A stretch of 64,000 bases of DNA from an uncultured Candidatus Saccharibacteria bacterium (GTDB lineage Bacteria; Patescibacteriota; CPR2_A; CAYFQT01), in assembly GCA_964345445.1 (NCBI GenBank), contig CAYFQT010000038.1, positions 30,893 to 94,892 on the forward strand. Direction: 5' to 3'. Below the pieces are notes generated by a model that saw only the letters and a list, made by a program, of their open reading frames with translations, did no database searches and was not told where the DNA came from. A program made the position numbers and the translations under genes. Numbering within the stretch: the first letter of the stretch is position 1; every line of letters begins with the position of its first letter. Shown one piece after another: positions 9,702 through 60,462 of the stretch.

Positions 9702-10001
9702 ATGTTAGATCGTACAAAAGAATTATTAAAGTTACAAAAGCAAGCTAGAGAGATTCAAAAAGCTTTAAGAGAAGAAATTATTGAGGTAGAAAAATTAGAT
9801 GGAAAAATCAAAATTGTAATTTCAGGGGAACAAAAAATCCAAGAAATAAAAATTGATCCTTCTTTACTTACAGCTGATAGTGTTTTAAGCTTAGAAAGTA
9901 ATTTGAAAGAAGCTTTTTCTGAAGCTATTACTCGTTCTCAGCAAGTAGCCGCAGCAAAGATGAAGGAAATGGGAGGAGGAATGGGATTACCAGGGTTGTA
10001 G
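9702..10001 (+). CDS. ybaB: YbaB/EbfC nucleoid-associated protein
   Basis: 99 aa, KIDPSLL and C-terminal MGGGMGLPGL typical of YbaB; sits upstream of recR. Confidence 0.85.
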   Translation: MLDRTKELLKLQKQAREIQKALREEIIEVEKLDGKIKIVISGEQKIQEIKIDPSLLTADSVLSLESNLKEAFSEAITRSQQVAAAKMKEMGGGMGLPGL

Positions 10002-10022
10002 AAAAGTATAAGTGATTAAGTA

Positions 10023-10105
10023 ATTAGGAATTTGGAATTAGTAAAGAAGAAGAGTTTATGTTAATCAAAAAGTTTGGAAAACTCTAACTAATTCCTAATT
10101 CCATA
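10023..10105 (+). repeat. long imperfect inverted repeat (AATTAGGAATTTGGAATTAGT / RC) with nested AGAGTTT..AAACTCT hairpin
   Basis: About 18-bp arms around a 40-nt loop between ybaB and recR; possible terminator or attenuator. Confidence 0.4.
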
Positions 10106-10123
10106 TAACTACTACTGATACTT

Positions 10124-10729
10124 ATGAACTATATTCCAAAATCAGTTCAAAATTTAATAAGTGAATTTTCCAAACTTCCTGGAATTGGACCGAAGACAGC
10201 CTCGAGGCTTACTTTTTATCTTCTTAGATCTTCTGAAGAAGATATTGCCTCTTTAGGAAAGACAATTTTAGAATTAAAGAAGAAAATTGTTACTTGTTCA
10301 GTTTGTTGTAATATTGCCGAAGAAAATCCTTGCCCAATTTGTAAAAATTCTCAACGTAAAAAATCTCAAATTTGTGTTGTAGAAGAGCCACTGGATGTAA
10401 TGGCTTTGGAAAAGACTGGTGAATATAAAGGAACTTATCATGTTTTAGGTGGGGCGATTTCGCCAATTGAAGGAATAGGTCCTGAAAATTTATATATCAG
10501 GCAATTGGTCAGTAGGATTAAAAAAAATAGAGATACAATTTCAGAAATTATTTTGGCTACCAATCCTTCTTTAGAAGGGGAAGCTACTGCTATGTATCTT
10601 TTAGAAATATTAAGACCGCATAATATCAAAATTACTCGAATAGCTAGAGGATTGCCGGTAGGAGGAGATTTAGAATATGCTGATGAAGTAACTTTAACCA
10701 GAGCTTTAGAAGGAAGAAAAGTATATTAA
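10124..10729 (+). CDS. recR: recombination protein RecR
   Basis: GIGPKTASRL HhH, C-x2-C...C-x2-C zinc finger, Toprim region. Confidence 0.92.
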   Translation: MNYIPKSVQNLISEFSKLPGIGPKTASRLTFYLLRSSEEDIASLGKTILELKKKIVTCSVCCNIAEENPCPICKNSQRKKSQICVVEEPLDVMALEKTGEYKGTYHVLGGAISPIEGIGPENLYIRQLVSRIKKNRDTISEIILATNPSLEGEATAMYLLEILRPHNIKITRIARGLPVGGDLEYADEVTLTRALEGRKVY

Positions 10730-10825: not shown

Positions 10826-10920
10826 TAGAATAATTACAAAACTATAGAGACCCGACCCCCAATAGTAAAGACTTGGGGGAGGTTGGGTCTTCAAAAGTCA
10901 ATTCAATTAGCGGTATAGTT

Positions 10921-23986: not shown

Positions 23987-24162
23987 CAGTAGCTAAAACA
24001 CACTAAAGTTACACTAATAAATCACTAAATTAATACTAAAAATAAAGATAGAGTTTTAACTTGTAAAAATACTTTAGTATTTTTACGAAAGAGGAGAAAC
24101 AAACTGAAAGCTGGAGTAATTGCCTATAAGGAAATTAGGAAAGCGGCAGGTTTGTTTGGACG

Positions 24163-49115: not shown

Positions 49116-49577
49116 ATTTTCCTCCCTCGTCGAAGTAAACTTCAAGCTTTGGCGATCCCACAAAGTAGAATCGCTCTCGCTTTTCGTTCACTTCTCCTCT
49201 TTTGGCAAAATACTTTAGTATTTTGCTTAGTGAAATATTAAAAATCTCAGTTTCCATTCCAAAATCACCTTGGTGTTTCTTGGTGTTTAAAGCTTCCGCT
49301 TATTTCTTCTCTCCGTTAAAATGCTAAAATATTTTAACAGGCTTTTTTGATAATAATTATTCCTTTGTGGGGTCGAAGGCCCCGACGACTCGCTTCGGAT
49401 CGCCCGAATCGAGGCGAGAACACAAGTGGATGTCGGGACAACTTTCATTATTTATATTCATTGTAAAAATTGAAGCCCTATCGTAACACAAGTGGATAAA
49501 AGGACAATTTCTTTTGTTAAATTAGTTAAATTACCATTTATTCTATTCTACTTTAATTCTTTTTTTTGTGCAAATTT

Positions 49578-51224: not shown

Positions 51225-51448
51225 CTAAGTTCACTTTTTGGTTTAATATATAGCTTATAGAAAAAATTCATTTAATTTATCTGAAGGCAGTCTTTGAGAA
51301 AACCATATCGCAGCCCCCCCAAATAAATCTTCACCTTAGAAAAACTTTAGATGGGGAGGTGAGATCTGAGTAGCGCCTGGGGCAAGCCTATCAAAATTAT
51401 TCAATTAGAGGCGACTGCGTGTTTTCGAGGTGGATAAAATCTTGTAGA

Positions 51449-57134: not shown

Positions 57135-57545
57135 TTACTCTTTTTCAGTCTCTTCCTCAGATTTGCTGGCGGAATTCAGAATGCTTTCTATTCTTTCTAC
57201 CACTTCTTCTAAAGAATGTTCTGACTTTATCATATAATCAGCCGCTCCTTCTTCTAGCCCCTTCATTACTTCATCCATCTCTGAGAGATTAGATAGAATT
57301 AAAACTGGGATAGAAGATGTTTGAGATTTTTCTTTTAATTTTTTTAAAACTTCTCGTCCATTTAATTTAGGAAGTAAAATATCCAACAAAATAATATCTG
57401 GTTTTTCAATATCAACCATTTTGATACCTTCCCTCCCATCTAAAGCTATTGCCACATCATATCCTTCTCTTTGTAGTTTATTCTGATAAATCTTATTCAA
57501 AGCAGTATCATCTTCTATTATTAGAATTTTAGATTTATTGTTCAT
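57135..57545 (-). CDS. stand-alone response-regulator receiver (CheY-like)
   Basis: ILIIEDD, phospho-acceptor D in ILLDILLP, 136 aa, no output domain. Confidence 0.8.
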   Translation of the reverse strand: MNNKSKILIIEDDTALNKIYQNKLQREGYDVAIALDGREGIKMVDIEKPDIILLDILLPKLNGREVLKKLKEKSQTSSIPVLILSNLSEMDEVMKGLEEGAADYMIKSEHSLEEVVERIESILNSASKSEEETEKE

Positions 57546-57665
57546 TTTAACCTCCTGAGGTCTCTGTTATCCATTCATTACAGAGGCCGAGGCCCTATCG
57601 GAACCGGAGGTGGATGATAGGGCATTATTATTTTATTACTTAATAATAAGTGTTTGATGGGACTT
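57546..57665 (-). ncRNA. conserved two-hairpin 5' leader, copy L1
   Basis: More than 85% identical to L2 at 59878-60003. Hairpin 1 is GCCCTATC..(16-nt loop)..GATAGGGC, hairpin 2 is GGCCTCTGT..ACAGAGACC, then GGAGG SD. The hairpin-1 loop CCACCTCC is complementary to the SD. Confidence 0.55.
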
Positions 57666-57712
57666 TTTAGCTAATCTTATTTTACTACATTATTGGCAAA
57701 TATGGAACATTT

Positions 57713-59320
57713 TTAAAACCCAGTTAATTTCACATGAGCAATATTATCACAGTGATCGCCGATTCTTTCTAAATTGCGAGTTACATCTATAAAAATTATT
57801 CCTGCTTGGGGATGACAAATTCTTGCTTTTAATCTTTTTAGGTGATGATTTCGTAATTTTCTTTCCAATTGATCAACTTTTCCTTCTTGATCTAATATGT
57901 AAGTAGCTAGTTTAATATTTTTTCTTTTAAGAATTTTAACTACATTGCTATACATTTTTTTCACTTCATCAAACATTTCTATGAGCTCTTTTTGAGCTTT
58001 GTCAGAAAAAGGAACTTTTTTTTCTATTTTTACCTTTCCTAATTCAGCAATATTATTTCCATGATCAGCTATTCTTTCAATATCAGAAATAGAGTGCATC
58101 AGCCCAGCTAGTTTTTGGGATTCTTTTTTAGTTAGAGGTTTTTCGGAGAGTTTAATTAAATAATTTCTAATTTTTCTATATAAATCATCTATTGCTTCTT
58201 CTTGTCTGATTGCTGGTTGAAAAAAAGTAATATCATCTGACATTAATACTTTATAACTATTTGAAAGCAATTGAGAAGCCATATGTGCCATTCTATGAGT
58301 TTCTTTAGTTGCTTGGGATAGAGCCAGTGAGGGAAGATTTAAAACTCTTTTGTCTAGATATTTTACGCCCCTATCAATTTTTATTTCTTTACCAGGGATT
58401 ATTTTTTCTACTATTTTAACTAAAATTGGTATAAAGGGTAATAAGATTAGAGTAGTTGTTATATTGAACACAGTATGAGCATTAGCTATTTGTCTAGCTA
58501 AACCAGCTGAGGTTTTTAACATAATTTGGGTAAAAATTGGTAAAAAAAGAAAAAAGATTATCACTCCTATAATATTGAATAAAAGATGAACAATTGCTGC
58601 TCGCCTAGCTTGTAGATAGGAGCCAATTGAGGCTAAGATTACTGTTATACAAGTACCGATATTAGCTCCTAGGATTAGAGAAATTGCTGCTTTTAAATCT
58701 ATAATATTTGCCATCCCCATAGCAATAACTAAACCAGAGGTAGCGCTTGAGCTTTGGATAATTCCAGTAAATAAAGCTCCTGCTAATATTCCTAAAATTG
58801 GTATTTGACTAAAGTTAGTTAGAAGATTGGTAAAAAATGGTGCACCTCTTAAGGGTTTTATGCCACTGGTCATAAAATTCATTCCTACAAATAAAATACC
58901 CAACCCCAAAAGCATTTCCCCAATATATTTATTAGTTCTTTTTTTACTCAGGAAGAATAGGAGAAAACCTATAACTAAAATAAGTAAAGCATAATAATTA
59001 ATTTTAAAGGCAACAAGTTGGGCAGTAATTGTTGTTCCAATATTAGCCCCCATTATTACTCCTATAGCTTGTTGAAGGTTGACTAAACCAGCATTTAAAA
59101 ATCCTAAAAGTATTACTGTTGTCGCACTTGAGCTTTGAATGATGGCAGTAATAACAGCCCCTATTGAAACTCCTACAAAAGGATTATTAGTTATTTTTTC
59201 TAGTGTTTTTCTGATTTTATCGCTAGCTATTTTCTGCAGTCCTCCACCCATCAAGATCATGCCATATATAAAAAGAGCTAATCCTCCCCCTACTTCAAAA
59301 ATTATTTCTTTTACTGGCAT
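57713..59320 (-). CDS. Na+/phosphate cotransporter (NptA family) fused to PhoU-like domains
   Basis: N-terminal Na/Pi-cotransporter repeats (QSSSATT x2) plus two C-terminal PhoU-like helical repeats. Confidence 0.85.
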   Translation of the reverse strand: MPVKEIIFEVGGGLALFIYGMILMGGGLQKIASDKIRKTLEKITNNPFVGVSIGAVITAIIQSSSATTVILLGFLNAGLVNLQQAIGVIMGANIGTTITAQLVAFKINYYALLILVIGFLLFFLSKKRTNKYIGEMLLGLGILFVGMNFMTSGIKPLRGAPFFTNLLTNFSQIPILGILAGALFTGIIQSSSATSGLVIAMGMANIIDLKAAISLILGANIGTCITVILASIGSYLQARRAAIVHLLFNIIGVIIFFLFLPIFTQIMLKTSAGLARQIANAHTVFNITTTLILLPFIPILVKIVEKIIPGKEIKIDRGVKYLDKRVLNLPSLALSQATKETHRMAHMASQLLSNSYKVLMSDDITFFQPAIRQEEAIDDLYRKIRNYLIKLSEKPLTKKESQKLAGLMHSISDIERIADHGNNIAELGKVKIEKKVPFSDKAQKELIEMFDEVKKMYSNVVKILKRKNIKLATYILDQEGKVDQLERKLRNHHLKRLKARICHPQAGIIFIDVTRNLERIGDHCDNIAHVKLTGF

Positions 59321-59589
59321 ATAATGTGCCTCCTTCGTCGGCAGGTATCAAATGTATCAAGAGTATCAAAGGTTTAAAAACCTCTGATACCTGTGATACC
59401 CATGACACTTGTGAGACTTATAAAAATGATACCTTTTTTGACACCTATTAAATAAAATAAAAGGCTGTTGGCTAAAAGCTACAGCCTTTAATTAAAATAA
59501 AGATGTTTTTTTCTATACAACAGATGAATATCAAAAACCATTATTTGAACATATTCTTGGATATTATTTATTGTTTATTATTTTTTCCT

Positions 59590-59877
59590 TCATTCCACCA
59601 CTTTATAAACTATATCATGTTCTCGAGCATGTTCTTTGACTTTCAAACCGATAGCATCACCTTTTTTAGCCTCTTTGACATCTTCATGCTCAATCTGCAT
59701 TGATTCTACTTTTTGAGTAAAGTCAGAAGTAGCTCCTTTAATATGGACATTATCTCCTACTTTTAAAGTATCAGAAAGTTCAACAATAGCTACTCCTATT
59801 TTATTAAAATAGTGGGTTACTTTACCGACTTCTTTCTCTTCCTTTTCTTTTTTTTCTTCTTTTTTTTCTTCAGCCAT
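59590..59877 (-). CDS. small EF-Tu-domain-2-like beta-barrel protein with Lys/Glu-rich N-terminus
   Basis: 95 aa; G.V.....L...L.VGD...I.G.......V.S.Q......V..A..GD.IG pattern. Confidence 0.4.
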   Translation of the reverse strand: MAEEKKEEKKEKEEKEVGKVTHYFNKIGVAIVELSDTLKVGDNVHIKGATSDFTQKVESMQIEHEDVKEAKKGDAIGLKVKEHAREHDIVYKVVE

Positions 59878-60003
59878 TTTTTAACCTCCCGAGGTCTCTG
59901 TTTACCCATTCATTACAGAGACCGAGGCCCTATCGAAACTGGAAGTGAATGATAGGGCATTATTATTTGTTATTATTATCCTTAATAATTAGTGGATGAT
60001 GGG
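59878..60003 (-). ncRNA. conserved two-hairpin 5' leader, copy L2
   Basis: Same architecture as L1: GCCCTATC/GATAGGGC and GGTCTCTGT/ACAGAGACC stems; loop CACTTCC pairs with the SD GGGAGGT. Confidence 0.55.
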
Positions 60004-60090
60004 ATATTATTAATTTTAATTGTTTGTTACTTAATTTATATAATCCCTATAGCAACATTCAGTAACTATTTGTAACATCTAGTAAATTTT

Positions 60091-60462
60091 TTATCCTAAT
60101 ATTTCTTTTATTCTTTTTAATATTTGAGGAATAGTGGATTCGGATTTAACAAAAAAGTCTTCAATTTCATAACTTTGGCATTTTTCTTTGGTTTCTCTAT
60201 CACTTAAAACAGTAAGAATAACTATAGGAATAGATTCTGTTTTTGGTGTTTTTTTTAAAATGTCTAATACACTAAGTCCGTCAATTTCTGGAAGCATTAT
60301 ATCTAATAGAATTAGATCTGGTTTTTCGTCTACTGCTTTGGCTAAGGCTTCTTGACCATTTGAAGCTTGAATTACTTTATACCCTTCATTTTTTAAATTT
60401 AGCGCATATAGTTCTTGCAATGGTTTGTCATCTTCTACTAATAATATTTTTTTTTCTATCAT
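60091..60462 (-). CDS. stand-alone response-regulator receiver (CheY-like)
   Basis: ILLVEDD, LILLDIMLP, 123 aa. Confidence 0.8.
   Translation of the reverse strand: MIEKKILLVEDDKPLQELYALNLKNEGYKVIQASNGQEALAKAVDEKPDLILLDIMLPEIDGLSVLDILKKTPKTESIPIVILTVLSDRETKEKCQSYEIEDFFVKSESTIPQILKRIKEILG

Follow-up and report, generated by a model that had tools for sequence, protein, structure and literature searches.

Two-hairpin leader cassettes with their own Shine–Dalgarno sequence: a candidate cis-acting RNA family in a Patescibacteria neighbourhood

The cassette and its closest described counterparts

Several described systems place RNA structure next to a Shine–Dalgarno sequence (SD). The ROSE and fourU thermometers are hairpins of the 5' untranslated region (5' UTR) that lie beside the SD, contain a short pyrimidine stretch able to pair with it and control the initiation of translation. 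In the pseudoknot riboswitches SAM-II and preQ1-II/III, a hairpin loop pairs with the SD downstream. The E. coli ompA leader and the Bacillus STAB-SD have, upstream of a strong SD, stable hairpins that may shield the mRNA and keep the SD insulated. A likeness of another kind is offered by the BOX (pneumococcal), Correia (Neisseria) and REP/BIME (enterobacterial) elements, which are multi-copy hairpin modules co-transcribed with their neighbours and present or absent at orthologous sites. Traits of all of these occur in a leader-like element found in a 64,000-nucleotide stretch from an uncultured Candidatus Saccharibacteria bacterium (GCA_964345445.1, contig CAYFQT010000038.1; hereafter the window), where two similar segments, L1 and L2, directly precede the genes for a receiver-only response regulator (REC-B) and for a 95-aa protein resembling domain 2 of EF-Tu (the small protein).

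The differences are as instructive as the likenesses. Compared with ROSE and fourU, the cassette, as we call the element, has no Rfam match, only three SD bases pair (across a bulge), there is an extra conserved hairpin, P1, with a specific loop, and the downstream genes are not heat-shock genes. Compared with SAM-II and preQ1-II/III, it again has no Rfam match, complementarity between loop and SD exists in two of eight copies, and no conserved core resembling a ligand pocket is seen; the broadly conserved core and coherent gene set of a riboswitch are likewise not found, the cassette being present in two genomes, absent at orthologous sites in their nearest relatives and followed by unrelated genes. 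A purely 5'-terminal protective role, as for ompA and STAB-SD, does not fit all copies because the distance of P1 from the inferred 5' end varies: it is ~17–20 nt for REC-B in the related genome L014 and ~55 nt for L1, and the L014 copy before the small-protein gene is intercistronic. Finally, unlike BOX, Correia and REP elements, the copies are few, clustered and all in sense at gene starts, with the SD and its spacing to the start codon within the unit and with no terminal inverted repeats seen. By analogy, the cassette would be most like an SD-proximal structured leader in its working and a modular intergenic repeat in its evolution.

One explanation, which we favour tentatively, is that L1 and L2 are copies of a lineage-specific 'class A' of transcribed structured 5'-leader cassettes, most likely acting in cis on translation initiation. 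Each cassette would consist of P1, with a loop of the form (A/G)UCCAC...GUU(C), a pyrimidine linker (CUC or CCUUC), a second hairpin, P2, and, 2–4 nt later, a strong SD (GGGAGG) and the start codon; it would sit upstream of that codon and downstream of the promoter of the gene itself or of the cistron before it. Several unrelated genes of one chromosomal neighbourhood would carry it, and it would be gained, lost or swapped as a unit among close relatives. By supplying the SD and placing it beside a stable helix, it would set translation initiation; the linker would pair with the GAG of the SD in a short helix stacking between P1 and P2, and the conserved P1 loop would be a handle for a putative shared trans-acting factor (protein or RNA) that co-regulates the genes. 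The cassette is thus a new, narrowly distributed candidate for a cis-acting leader RNA, for which we infer transcription from an upstream promoter, occlusion of the SD by the linker and binding of a factor to P1.

To our knowledge, almost nothing is known about post-transcriptional control in the candidate phyla radiation (CPR)/Patescibacteria. The cassette would be a lineage-specific structured leader with covariation support, common to several genes of unknown function in one neighbourhood, and, if functional, it would define a small co-regulated set (receiver-only regulators, the EF-Tu-domain-2-like mini-protein, DUF3467, DUF5661 and bactofilin-like proteins) and give a handle on their biology. 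The wholesale swap of SD-carrying leaders between conserved promoters and conserved coding regions would be an unusual mode of 5'-UTR evolution. What limits the interest is that the family is very small, that sister genomes do without it and that it has no defined signal.

Copies of the family and their two hairpins

L1 (117 nt) and L2 (127 nt), the features of which are listed in Table 1, are identical at 107 of 117 ungapped columns (91.5%; 84% with gaps counted, in a global alignment), and a repeat search resolves the pair into blocks of 67 nt at 91%, 24 nt at 96% and 38 nt at 79%. The likeness ends exactly at both start codons, and the coding sequences that follow are unrelated. The GC content is 53% in the L1/L2 core versus 30.5% in the whole window, and RNAfold recovers P1 and P2 in both segments (z = -1.9 to -2.9). 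A first-pass annotation of this DNA had described the duplication, its place directly before the two genes and P1 as an 8-bp stem around a 16-nt loop, and in this it was correct; the P2 that it described, a 9-bp stem ending 2 nt before the SD, is that of L2 (SD GGGAGG), whereas in L1 the stem has 8 bp and a C·A mismatch and ends 3 nt before the SD (GGAGG). The differences between L1 and L2 avoid the stems, with 1 of 34 stem positions affected versus 9 of 44 unpaired core positions (Fisher p = 0.037), and the sole stem difference, from C·A in L1 to U-A in L2, mends the P2 mismatch.

L1 and L2 are not the unique pair that they were first taken to be but are members of a small, previously undescribed leader family. 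In a census covering ~85 kb of the two carrier genomes, the family comprises eight copies, four in the window (L1, L2 and two degenerate copies in tandem, 3a and 3b, at 49342–49512) and four in L014. A covariance model seeded with three copies (R1) and scanned against 105 kb gave seven sites, from 113 to 19.6 bits (E = 1e-35 to 1.5e-3), with L1 at 113 bits (E = 1e-35), L2 at 106.5 bits and the L014 DUF3467 copy at 100 bits against this window-seeded model. A second model (R2), built from the seven R1 sites and scanned against 778 kb, recovered the identical seven and, with filters off, added copy 3b (20.5 bits, E = 0.003), which has no intact P2 or SD directly downstream. Copies 3a and 3b adjoin, 3a first, in the long 5' region of a bactofilin-like gene (start 49115).

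All eight copies lie in sense orientation upstream of a gene, and in six of them P2 ends 2–4 nt before the SD (GGGAGG). The genes downstream (REC-B, EF-Tu-domain-2-like, DUF5661, DUF3467 and bactofilin-like) are mutually unrelated. In L014, the four elements occur within 10 kb, upstream of the genes for DUF5661, DUF3467, the small protein and a REC-B that is only 81% identical to that of the window, a divergence against which the 100 bits of the DUF3467 copy stand out; in the window, the copies are confined to 49.3–60.0 kb on one strand, and the other ~50 kb contains none by R2 with filters off.

As the first reading of the DNA had supposed, no described family, as far as Rfam 15 shows, matches this architecture. 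At gathering thresholds, Rfam 15 finds one tRNA only in the whole window; at E<=10 within 57400–60200 it gives four weak matches, three on a terminator hairpin (59428–59532) and one inside the coding region of a Na/Pi-cotransporter–PhoU fusion (NaPi/PhoU), with none on L1 or L2, and at E<=1 within L014 1–10500 it gives one weak, unrelated match and none on the family copies. Scanning six other related loci (L002, L003, L005, L006, L013 and L016) with R1 gave no matches. A scan of a genome collection with GATAGGGCCTCGGNCTCTG returned six chance matches from unrelated taxa with no likeness past the 18-mer, a scan of a metagenome collection with the conserved promoter block (see below) returned the known contig and two unrelated matches only, and of the 77 loci found in a viral collection with ATCCACTAACGTTC none fits the covariance model. 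No cassette was found upstream of the closest homologues of the small protein (L002–L006) or of DUF3467 orthologues in other genomes (L098–L102), one of which has a different two-hairpin leader. A literature search brought up nothing describing the motif, and one incidental mention of DUF3467.

A stretch on the minus strand of the window, at about 51370–51430 in a non-coding gap of ~810 nt separating two genes, reads UUUUAUCCACCUCGAAAAC...UUUUGAUAGGCUUGCC and resembles the degenerate P1 of copy 3a (UUUUAUC, then CAC..., then GAUAGG); it may be a further relic of the family, though the covariance model misses it.

Both stems are maintained by compensatory change. In a model-fitted alignment of seven copies from the two genomes, 93.6% of cells are paired, compared with 28–53% when the 3' partners are slid by 1–3 columns; 12 of the 16 pairs have changed on both sides, and none of 500 shuffles attains the covariation score of the real alignment. 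For P1, the stems are CCCUAUC/GAUAGGG, CCCUGUC/GACAGGG, CCCGACG/CGUCGGG, UUCCGACG/CGUCGGAA, UUCCAAC/GUUGGGA and GUCCCGAC/GUCGGGGC; P2 is exchanged wholesale among subtypes (GGYCUCUG, CCCCUG, UCCCGAU, CCUCGAU), the hairpin always being kept. RNAalifold predicts P1 and P2 on the covariance-model alignment (11 of 15 pairs compensated) and also on a plain MAFFT alignment that was not fitted to the structure. Two marks of a generic cis-regulatory 5' leader are present, namely sense orientation with a consistent position and compensatory substitutions (in seven sequences from two genomes).

This pattern bears on two other explanations of P1. One is that a transcription factor binds its inverted repeat as a palindrome on the DNA, which would suit an inverted repeat near the promoters of co-located genes in a region flanked by two receiver-domain genes. 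However, the half-sites change by compensation rather than being conserved, which largely refutes such an operator, the spacing of the arms varies from 13 to >110 nt, the element lies downstream of the conserved promoter blocks, and the flanking REC proteins have no DNA-binding domain. The alignment also contains six G·U cells, on the sense strand only, and RNA is favoured over a DNA palindrome for this reason; the operator is highly improbable.

The other explanation is a translational relay, in which an AUG at the base of P1 would start a short upstream open reading frame (uORF); ribosomes translating it would open P1, the linker and the 5' side of P2 and so free the SD. Directly before P1 there is an AUG in five of the eight copies and a UUG in two; the frame is open through P1, and in L1, L2 and the L014 DUF5661 copy it runs for 15 codons to a UAA in the same position of the P2 loop, and in L014 it overlaps the REC-B start (AUGA) and is in frame with the small protein, for which the gene caller gives a 117-aa product. 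Yet the AUG has no preceding SD, the L014 DUF3467 copy has AUAG in place of a start codon, and the length and end point of the frame differ from copy to copy. Moreover, L1 and L2 differ by four non-synonymous changes and one synonymous change in 15 codons, and the compensated stem positions would encode unrelated residues in different copies (Tyr-His, Arg-Arg, Gln-His), which is the pattern of a constraint on RNA and not on a peptide. A leader peptide would be marked by a start codon with its own ribosome-binding site and by purifying selection on the encoded sequence, neither of which is found here, and no translated leader was seen among unusually long homologues of the small protein. We give the relay a low probability.

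P1 loop, linker and Shine–Dalgarno sequence

The P1 loop has a signature of unpaired nucleotides that is kept across genomes: it starts with (A/G)UCCAC (AUUCAC in L2) and ends with GUU(C). Its interior contains an AC/GU mini-stem of 2–3 bp and an apical loop, which is UAAC in the four L014 copies, UUGU in 3a and 3b, CUCCG in L1 and UCC in L2; no part of P1 varies more than this apical loop, which accounts for 4 of the 10 core differences between L1 and L2.

The first-pass annotation proposed that the P1 loop gates translation by pairing with the SD, that is, as a pseudoknot in the manner of SAM-II and preQ1-II/III. The strings on which it relied, CCACCUCC in L1 and CACUUCC in L2, are present as described, each is able to make six base pairs to GGAGGU (including a single G·U in the case of L2), and the two substitutions between L1 and L2 in this part of the loop keep the pairing possible. 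For L1, the RNAduplex energy of loop and SD is -11.2 kcal/mol, which 5% of shuffled loops equal; however, 34% of shuffled loops are as good as L2 (-8.0), and in every L014 copy the energy is no better than for shuffled loops. Since CCUCC or CUUCC is limited to L1 and L2, the six other copies having UAAC or UUGU, and given these duplex energies, gating by the loop is not a property of the family. The covariation in homologues that had been suggested as a check was found for both stems but not for the complementarity of loop and SD. We therefore regard the pseudoknot gate as improbable; loop–SD pairing may be a subtype-specific addition in L1 and L2. Kissing between the P1 and P2 loops (AUCCA:UGGAU in L1, AUUCA:UGGGU in L2) was also considered; it is possible in the A1 subtype, and was rejected as a family feature because it is impossible in copies with a P2 tetraloop.

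The family-wide candidate for an anti-SD, according to structure prediction, is the linker and not the P1 loop. The linker between P1 and P2 is always pyrimidine (CUC, CCUUC or UCUUU), and on the MAFFT alignment RNAalifold predicts that in each of the five compact copies its YUC forms a 3-bp helix with GAG in the SD (CG:3, UG:2; UA:5; CG:5). The minimum-free-energy structures of L1 and L2 also pair the linker with the SD, and occlusion of the SD by the linker is plausible on these models.

Three P1 loops contain a GC-rich palindrome (CGCCUCGAUUC...GCGAAGCGGG) inserted after GUUC. In the form CGCCUCGAUUC(N)GCGAAGCGGGC, this palindrome is found inside P1 loops at about 49385–49416 of the window (minus strand), at L014:728–750 and at L014:9859–9905, sometimes in tandem, and stands alone after a gene at L016:878–902; it behaves like a small REP-like element.

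Table 1. Features of the cassette copies and their surroundings in the window
Feature	Coordinates	Strand	Remarks
L1, full segment	57546..57662	-	AU-rich upstream half, two-hairpin core, SD and spacer; putative 5' UTR of the REC-only gene 57545..57135
L1 hairpin P1	57592..57623	-	8 bp, 16-nt loop; from sequence, RNAfold and covariation
L1 P1, 5' arm	57623-57616	-	GCCCUAUC
L1 P1, 16-nt loop	57615-57600	-	AUCCACCUCCGGUUCC
L1 P1, 3' arm	57599-57592	-	GAUAGGGC
L1 pyrimidine linker	57589..57591	-	CUC, joining P1 to P2; complement of GAG in the SD; family-wide candidate anti-SD
L1 hairpin P2	57559..57588	-	GGCCUCUGU / ACAGAGACC; 8 bp and one C·A mismatch; 12-nt loop AAUGAAUGGAUA
L1 SD	57551..57555	-	GGAGG; start codon 57545-57543
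L2, full segment	59878..60004	-	putative 5' UTR of the 95-aa EF-Tu-domain-2-like gene 59877..59590
L2 hairpin P1	59927..59958	-	stem as in L1 (GCCCUAUC/GAUAGGGC, 8 bp); 16-nt loop AUUCACUUCCAGUUUC
L2 hairpin P2	59893..59923	-	GGUCUCUGU/ACAGAGACC; perfect 9 bp; 13-nt loop
L2 SD	59885..59890	-	GGGAGG; start codon 59877-59875
Copy 3a, degenerate	49442..49512	-	P1 GUCCUUUUAUC...GAUAGGGC; decayed AU-rich P2; R1 20.8 bits (E = 6e-4), R2 52 bits
Copy 3b	49342..49441	-	P1 GUCCCGAC/GUCGGGGC; loop AUCCACUUGUGUUC with inserted GC-rich palindrome (module I, CGCCUCGAUUC...); linker CUUC
Promoter-like block	57678..57707	-	TTCCAT-N17-TAAAAT, directly after the NaPi/PhoU stop codon; ATATTTnnnAATAATGTAGTAAAATA common to the window, L013, L014 and L016
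Intrinsic terminator	about 59531-59457	-	between the small-protein gene and the NaPi/PhoU fusion gene

Promoters, leader turnover and neighbouring genes

The element ATAATAAT, just upstream of P1, had been put forward as -10-like, but it is unsupported and probably not the promoter, though in DNA so rich in AT it keeps a small chance, and a promoter is more likely about 55–85 nt upstream of P1, in the block TTCCAT-N17-TAAAAT. This block is likely to be the promoter of the L1 transcript because it is conserved in four genomes whatever leader follows; indeed, each of the four has downstream of it a different GC-rich, hairpin-rich leader ending in GGGAGG. Similarly, the promoter of the bactofilin-like gene (TTGCAC-N17-TAGAAT) is conserved and is followed by a plain leader of ~50 nt in L014 versus ~400 nt of hairpin modules in the window. 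At the small-protein site, L002, L003/L004 and L013 keep an upstream spacer with four GTTAC repeats of 10-nt period and have no two-hairpin segment. The duplicated segment is most likely a transcribed 5' UTR, and the combination of conserved promoters with differing leaders in the closest relatives indicates that the cassette is gained or lost as a unit.

Several points weigh against a cis-acting leader. Only eight copies from two genomes are available, the main alignment is fitted to the structure, and the copies within a genome are paralogous, so the covariation counts are not independent events. The helix between linker and SD has only 3 bp across a bulge, with an ensemble probability of about 0.5 in L1 and 0.1–0.3 elsewhere, and it cannot covary since the SD is invariant. 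The transcription start site is deduced from conservation only, no binding partner was found for the P1 loop, and the downstream genes share no evident function. The nearest relative, L013, with a REC-B 93% identical, has no cassette at either site, nor have the DUF3467 orthologues elsewhere, and the cassette is therefore dispensable for these genes. Finally, the REP-like palindrome inside three P1 loops fits selfish turnover as well as function.

Such turnover is the substance of the strongest rival explanation: a modular repeat of intergenic DNA, selfish or neutral and akin to the REP/BIME, BOX or Correia elements, would spread, decay and persist where its SD is usable, its structure being kept for propagation or through recency and not for regulation. 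The leaders of this clade are indeed mosaics in which a few modules recur in varied combinations, namely A (the P1 unit), I (the GC-rich palindrome, which stands alone at L016:880), H (AAAAUACUUUAGUAUUUU) and B (GAAG..CUUCGACGAGGGAGG), and close relatives that keep the promoters differ in whether they have the cassette; this mosaic build and this presence or absence are those of REP, BOX or miniature inverted-repeat transposable elements (MITEs). Intact and decayed copies lie in tandem at 49342–49512 of the window and probably at L1, at L2 and at L014:660–808. A decayed copy tends to come before an intact one, as with 3a before 3b and with an 'upstream half' (CCCnUCAUYCACUAAU) before L1, L2 and the L014 DUF3467 copy; A-rich sequence with AUG on both sides of every copy is reminiscent of a duplicated target. 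However, the dispersal of REP, BOX or MITE elements, in many copies and both orientations with no fixed relation to start codons, is not observed in the ~85 kb of the two genomes, where the copies are clustered in one neighbourhood, all eight are in sense, and the repeat unit includes the SD together with its distance from the AUG. Nor was a transposase-like partner seen, any more than terminal inverted repeats, and the conservation of unpaired loop nucleotides across genomes is also at odds with a selfish repeat, which we consider rather unlikely.

A more specific proposal, and an unlikely one in our estimate, is that the cassette is a self-contained movable 'translation-initiation module' that inserts or duplicates exactly at start codons, or else that a small post-transcriptional regulon has the conserved P1 loop as its operator. 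The module, two hairpins and a strong SD with A-rich sequence and AUG on both sides, would replace the native ribosome-binding region, and the older copy would decay upstream. Targeting of start codons would account for the leader swaps in sister genomes, for an AUG preceding P1 and for the four sites where an intact copy and a relic lie in tandem. The regulon might be run by a co-located protein, for example the EF-Tu-domain-2-like β-barrel protein; the homologous domain 2 in EF-Tu contacts the CCA end of tRNA.

Other leader modules were seen in the clade. An AU-rich hairpin, AAAAU(A/G)CUUUAG(U/C)AUUUU, occurs in the window at 24066 (plus strand), 49224 and 49335 (both minus strand), at L013:4013 and 4101 and at L016:228, and is usually followed by AAGAGGAG. 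An SD-proximal module, GAAG...CUUC-GACGA(G/A)GGGAGG-N-AUG, is found before different genes in three genomes (window 49119–49150, minus strand; L013:4187; L016:309), and a weaker one, CUGCCGACGAAGGAGG, upstream of the NaPi/PhoU gene at 59344 of the window. Public gene calls start inside leaders at L014:7491–7844 and 10001–10462, L013:4207–4647 and L016:330–770, the small protein being called at 117 aa rather than about 94 and REC-B at 146–153 aa rather than about 136. The added N-terminal residues are probably artefactual, and for annotation it matters that the cassette would account for such spurious extensions in relatives (117 vs about 94 aa; 153 vs about 136 aa).

As to the host, the window encodes DnaX, DnaB, a penicillin-binding-protein transpeptidase and class I/II tRNA synthetases and is bacterial for this reason; the proteins homologous to its products bear the names of Parcubacteria, Pacebacteria and other Patescibacteria. 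An archaeal-promoter reading, raised by archaeal names among the homologues of the small protein, was ruled out by DnaX, DnaB and the transpeptidase. Read along the minus strand, the region has in turn REC-A (60462..60091), L2, the small-protein gene, the intrinsic terminator, NaPi/PhoU (59320..57713), L1, REC-B, DUF763 and a SpoU methylase. The protein labels first given hold: REC-A and REC-B are receiver-only (PF00072), without a DNA-binding domain, and the 95-aa protein matches Pfam EF-Tu domain 2 just below the cut-off (28.4 bits versus 30.3, E = 2e-6), with a weak PDB match to domain 2 of EF-1alpha/SelB.

The 95-aa protein (59590–59877, minus strand) is 70–85% identical to proteins named from Woesearchaeota, Nanoarchaeota, Euryarchaeota and bacteria; given this spread, a tiny β-barrel protein would have either been conserved to an extreme degree or passed between domains of life. 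Upstream of its gene, at 60052–60086 of the window (minus strand), four (G/T)TTAC/GTTGC pentamers have an exact 10-nt period (60086, 60076, 60066, 60056), with a -10-like TATATAA at ~60035–60042; this array, conserved in L002, L003/L004 and L013, looks like a direct-repeat binding site for a response-regulator-type transcription factor next to a promoter.

In a second public assembly of the same organism (L001/L020; GCA_012974985.1, JABAOH010047380.1; a 6-kb contig), both leader spacers are identical to those of the window. There the NaPi/PhoU gene is split into calls of 70, 80 and 87 aa, which suggests frameshift errors of that assembly. Upstream of the same gene in the window, at about 59345–59440 (minus strand), dense GGTATCA / TGATAC / GTGTCA repeats with Pho-box-like TGTCA cores are probably an operator region of the phosphate regulon, and a similar array exists in L013. 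Elsewhere in the window, at 10840–10900 (plus strand), there is a long GC-rich hairpin, GAGACCCGACCCCC...GGGGGAGGUUGGGUCUUC, the 3' arm of which holds an SD-like GGGGGAGG.

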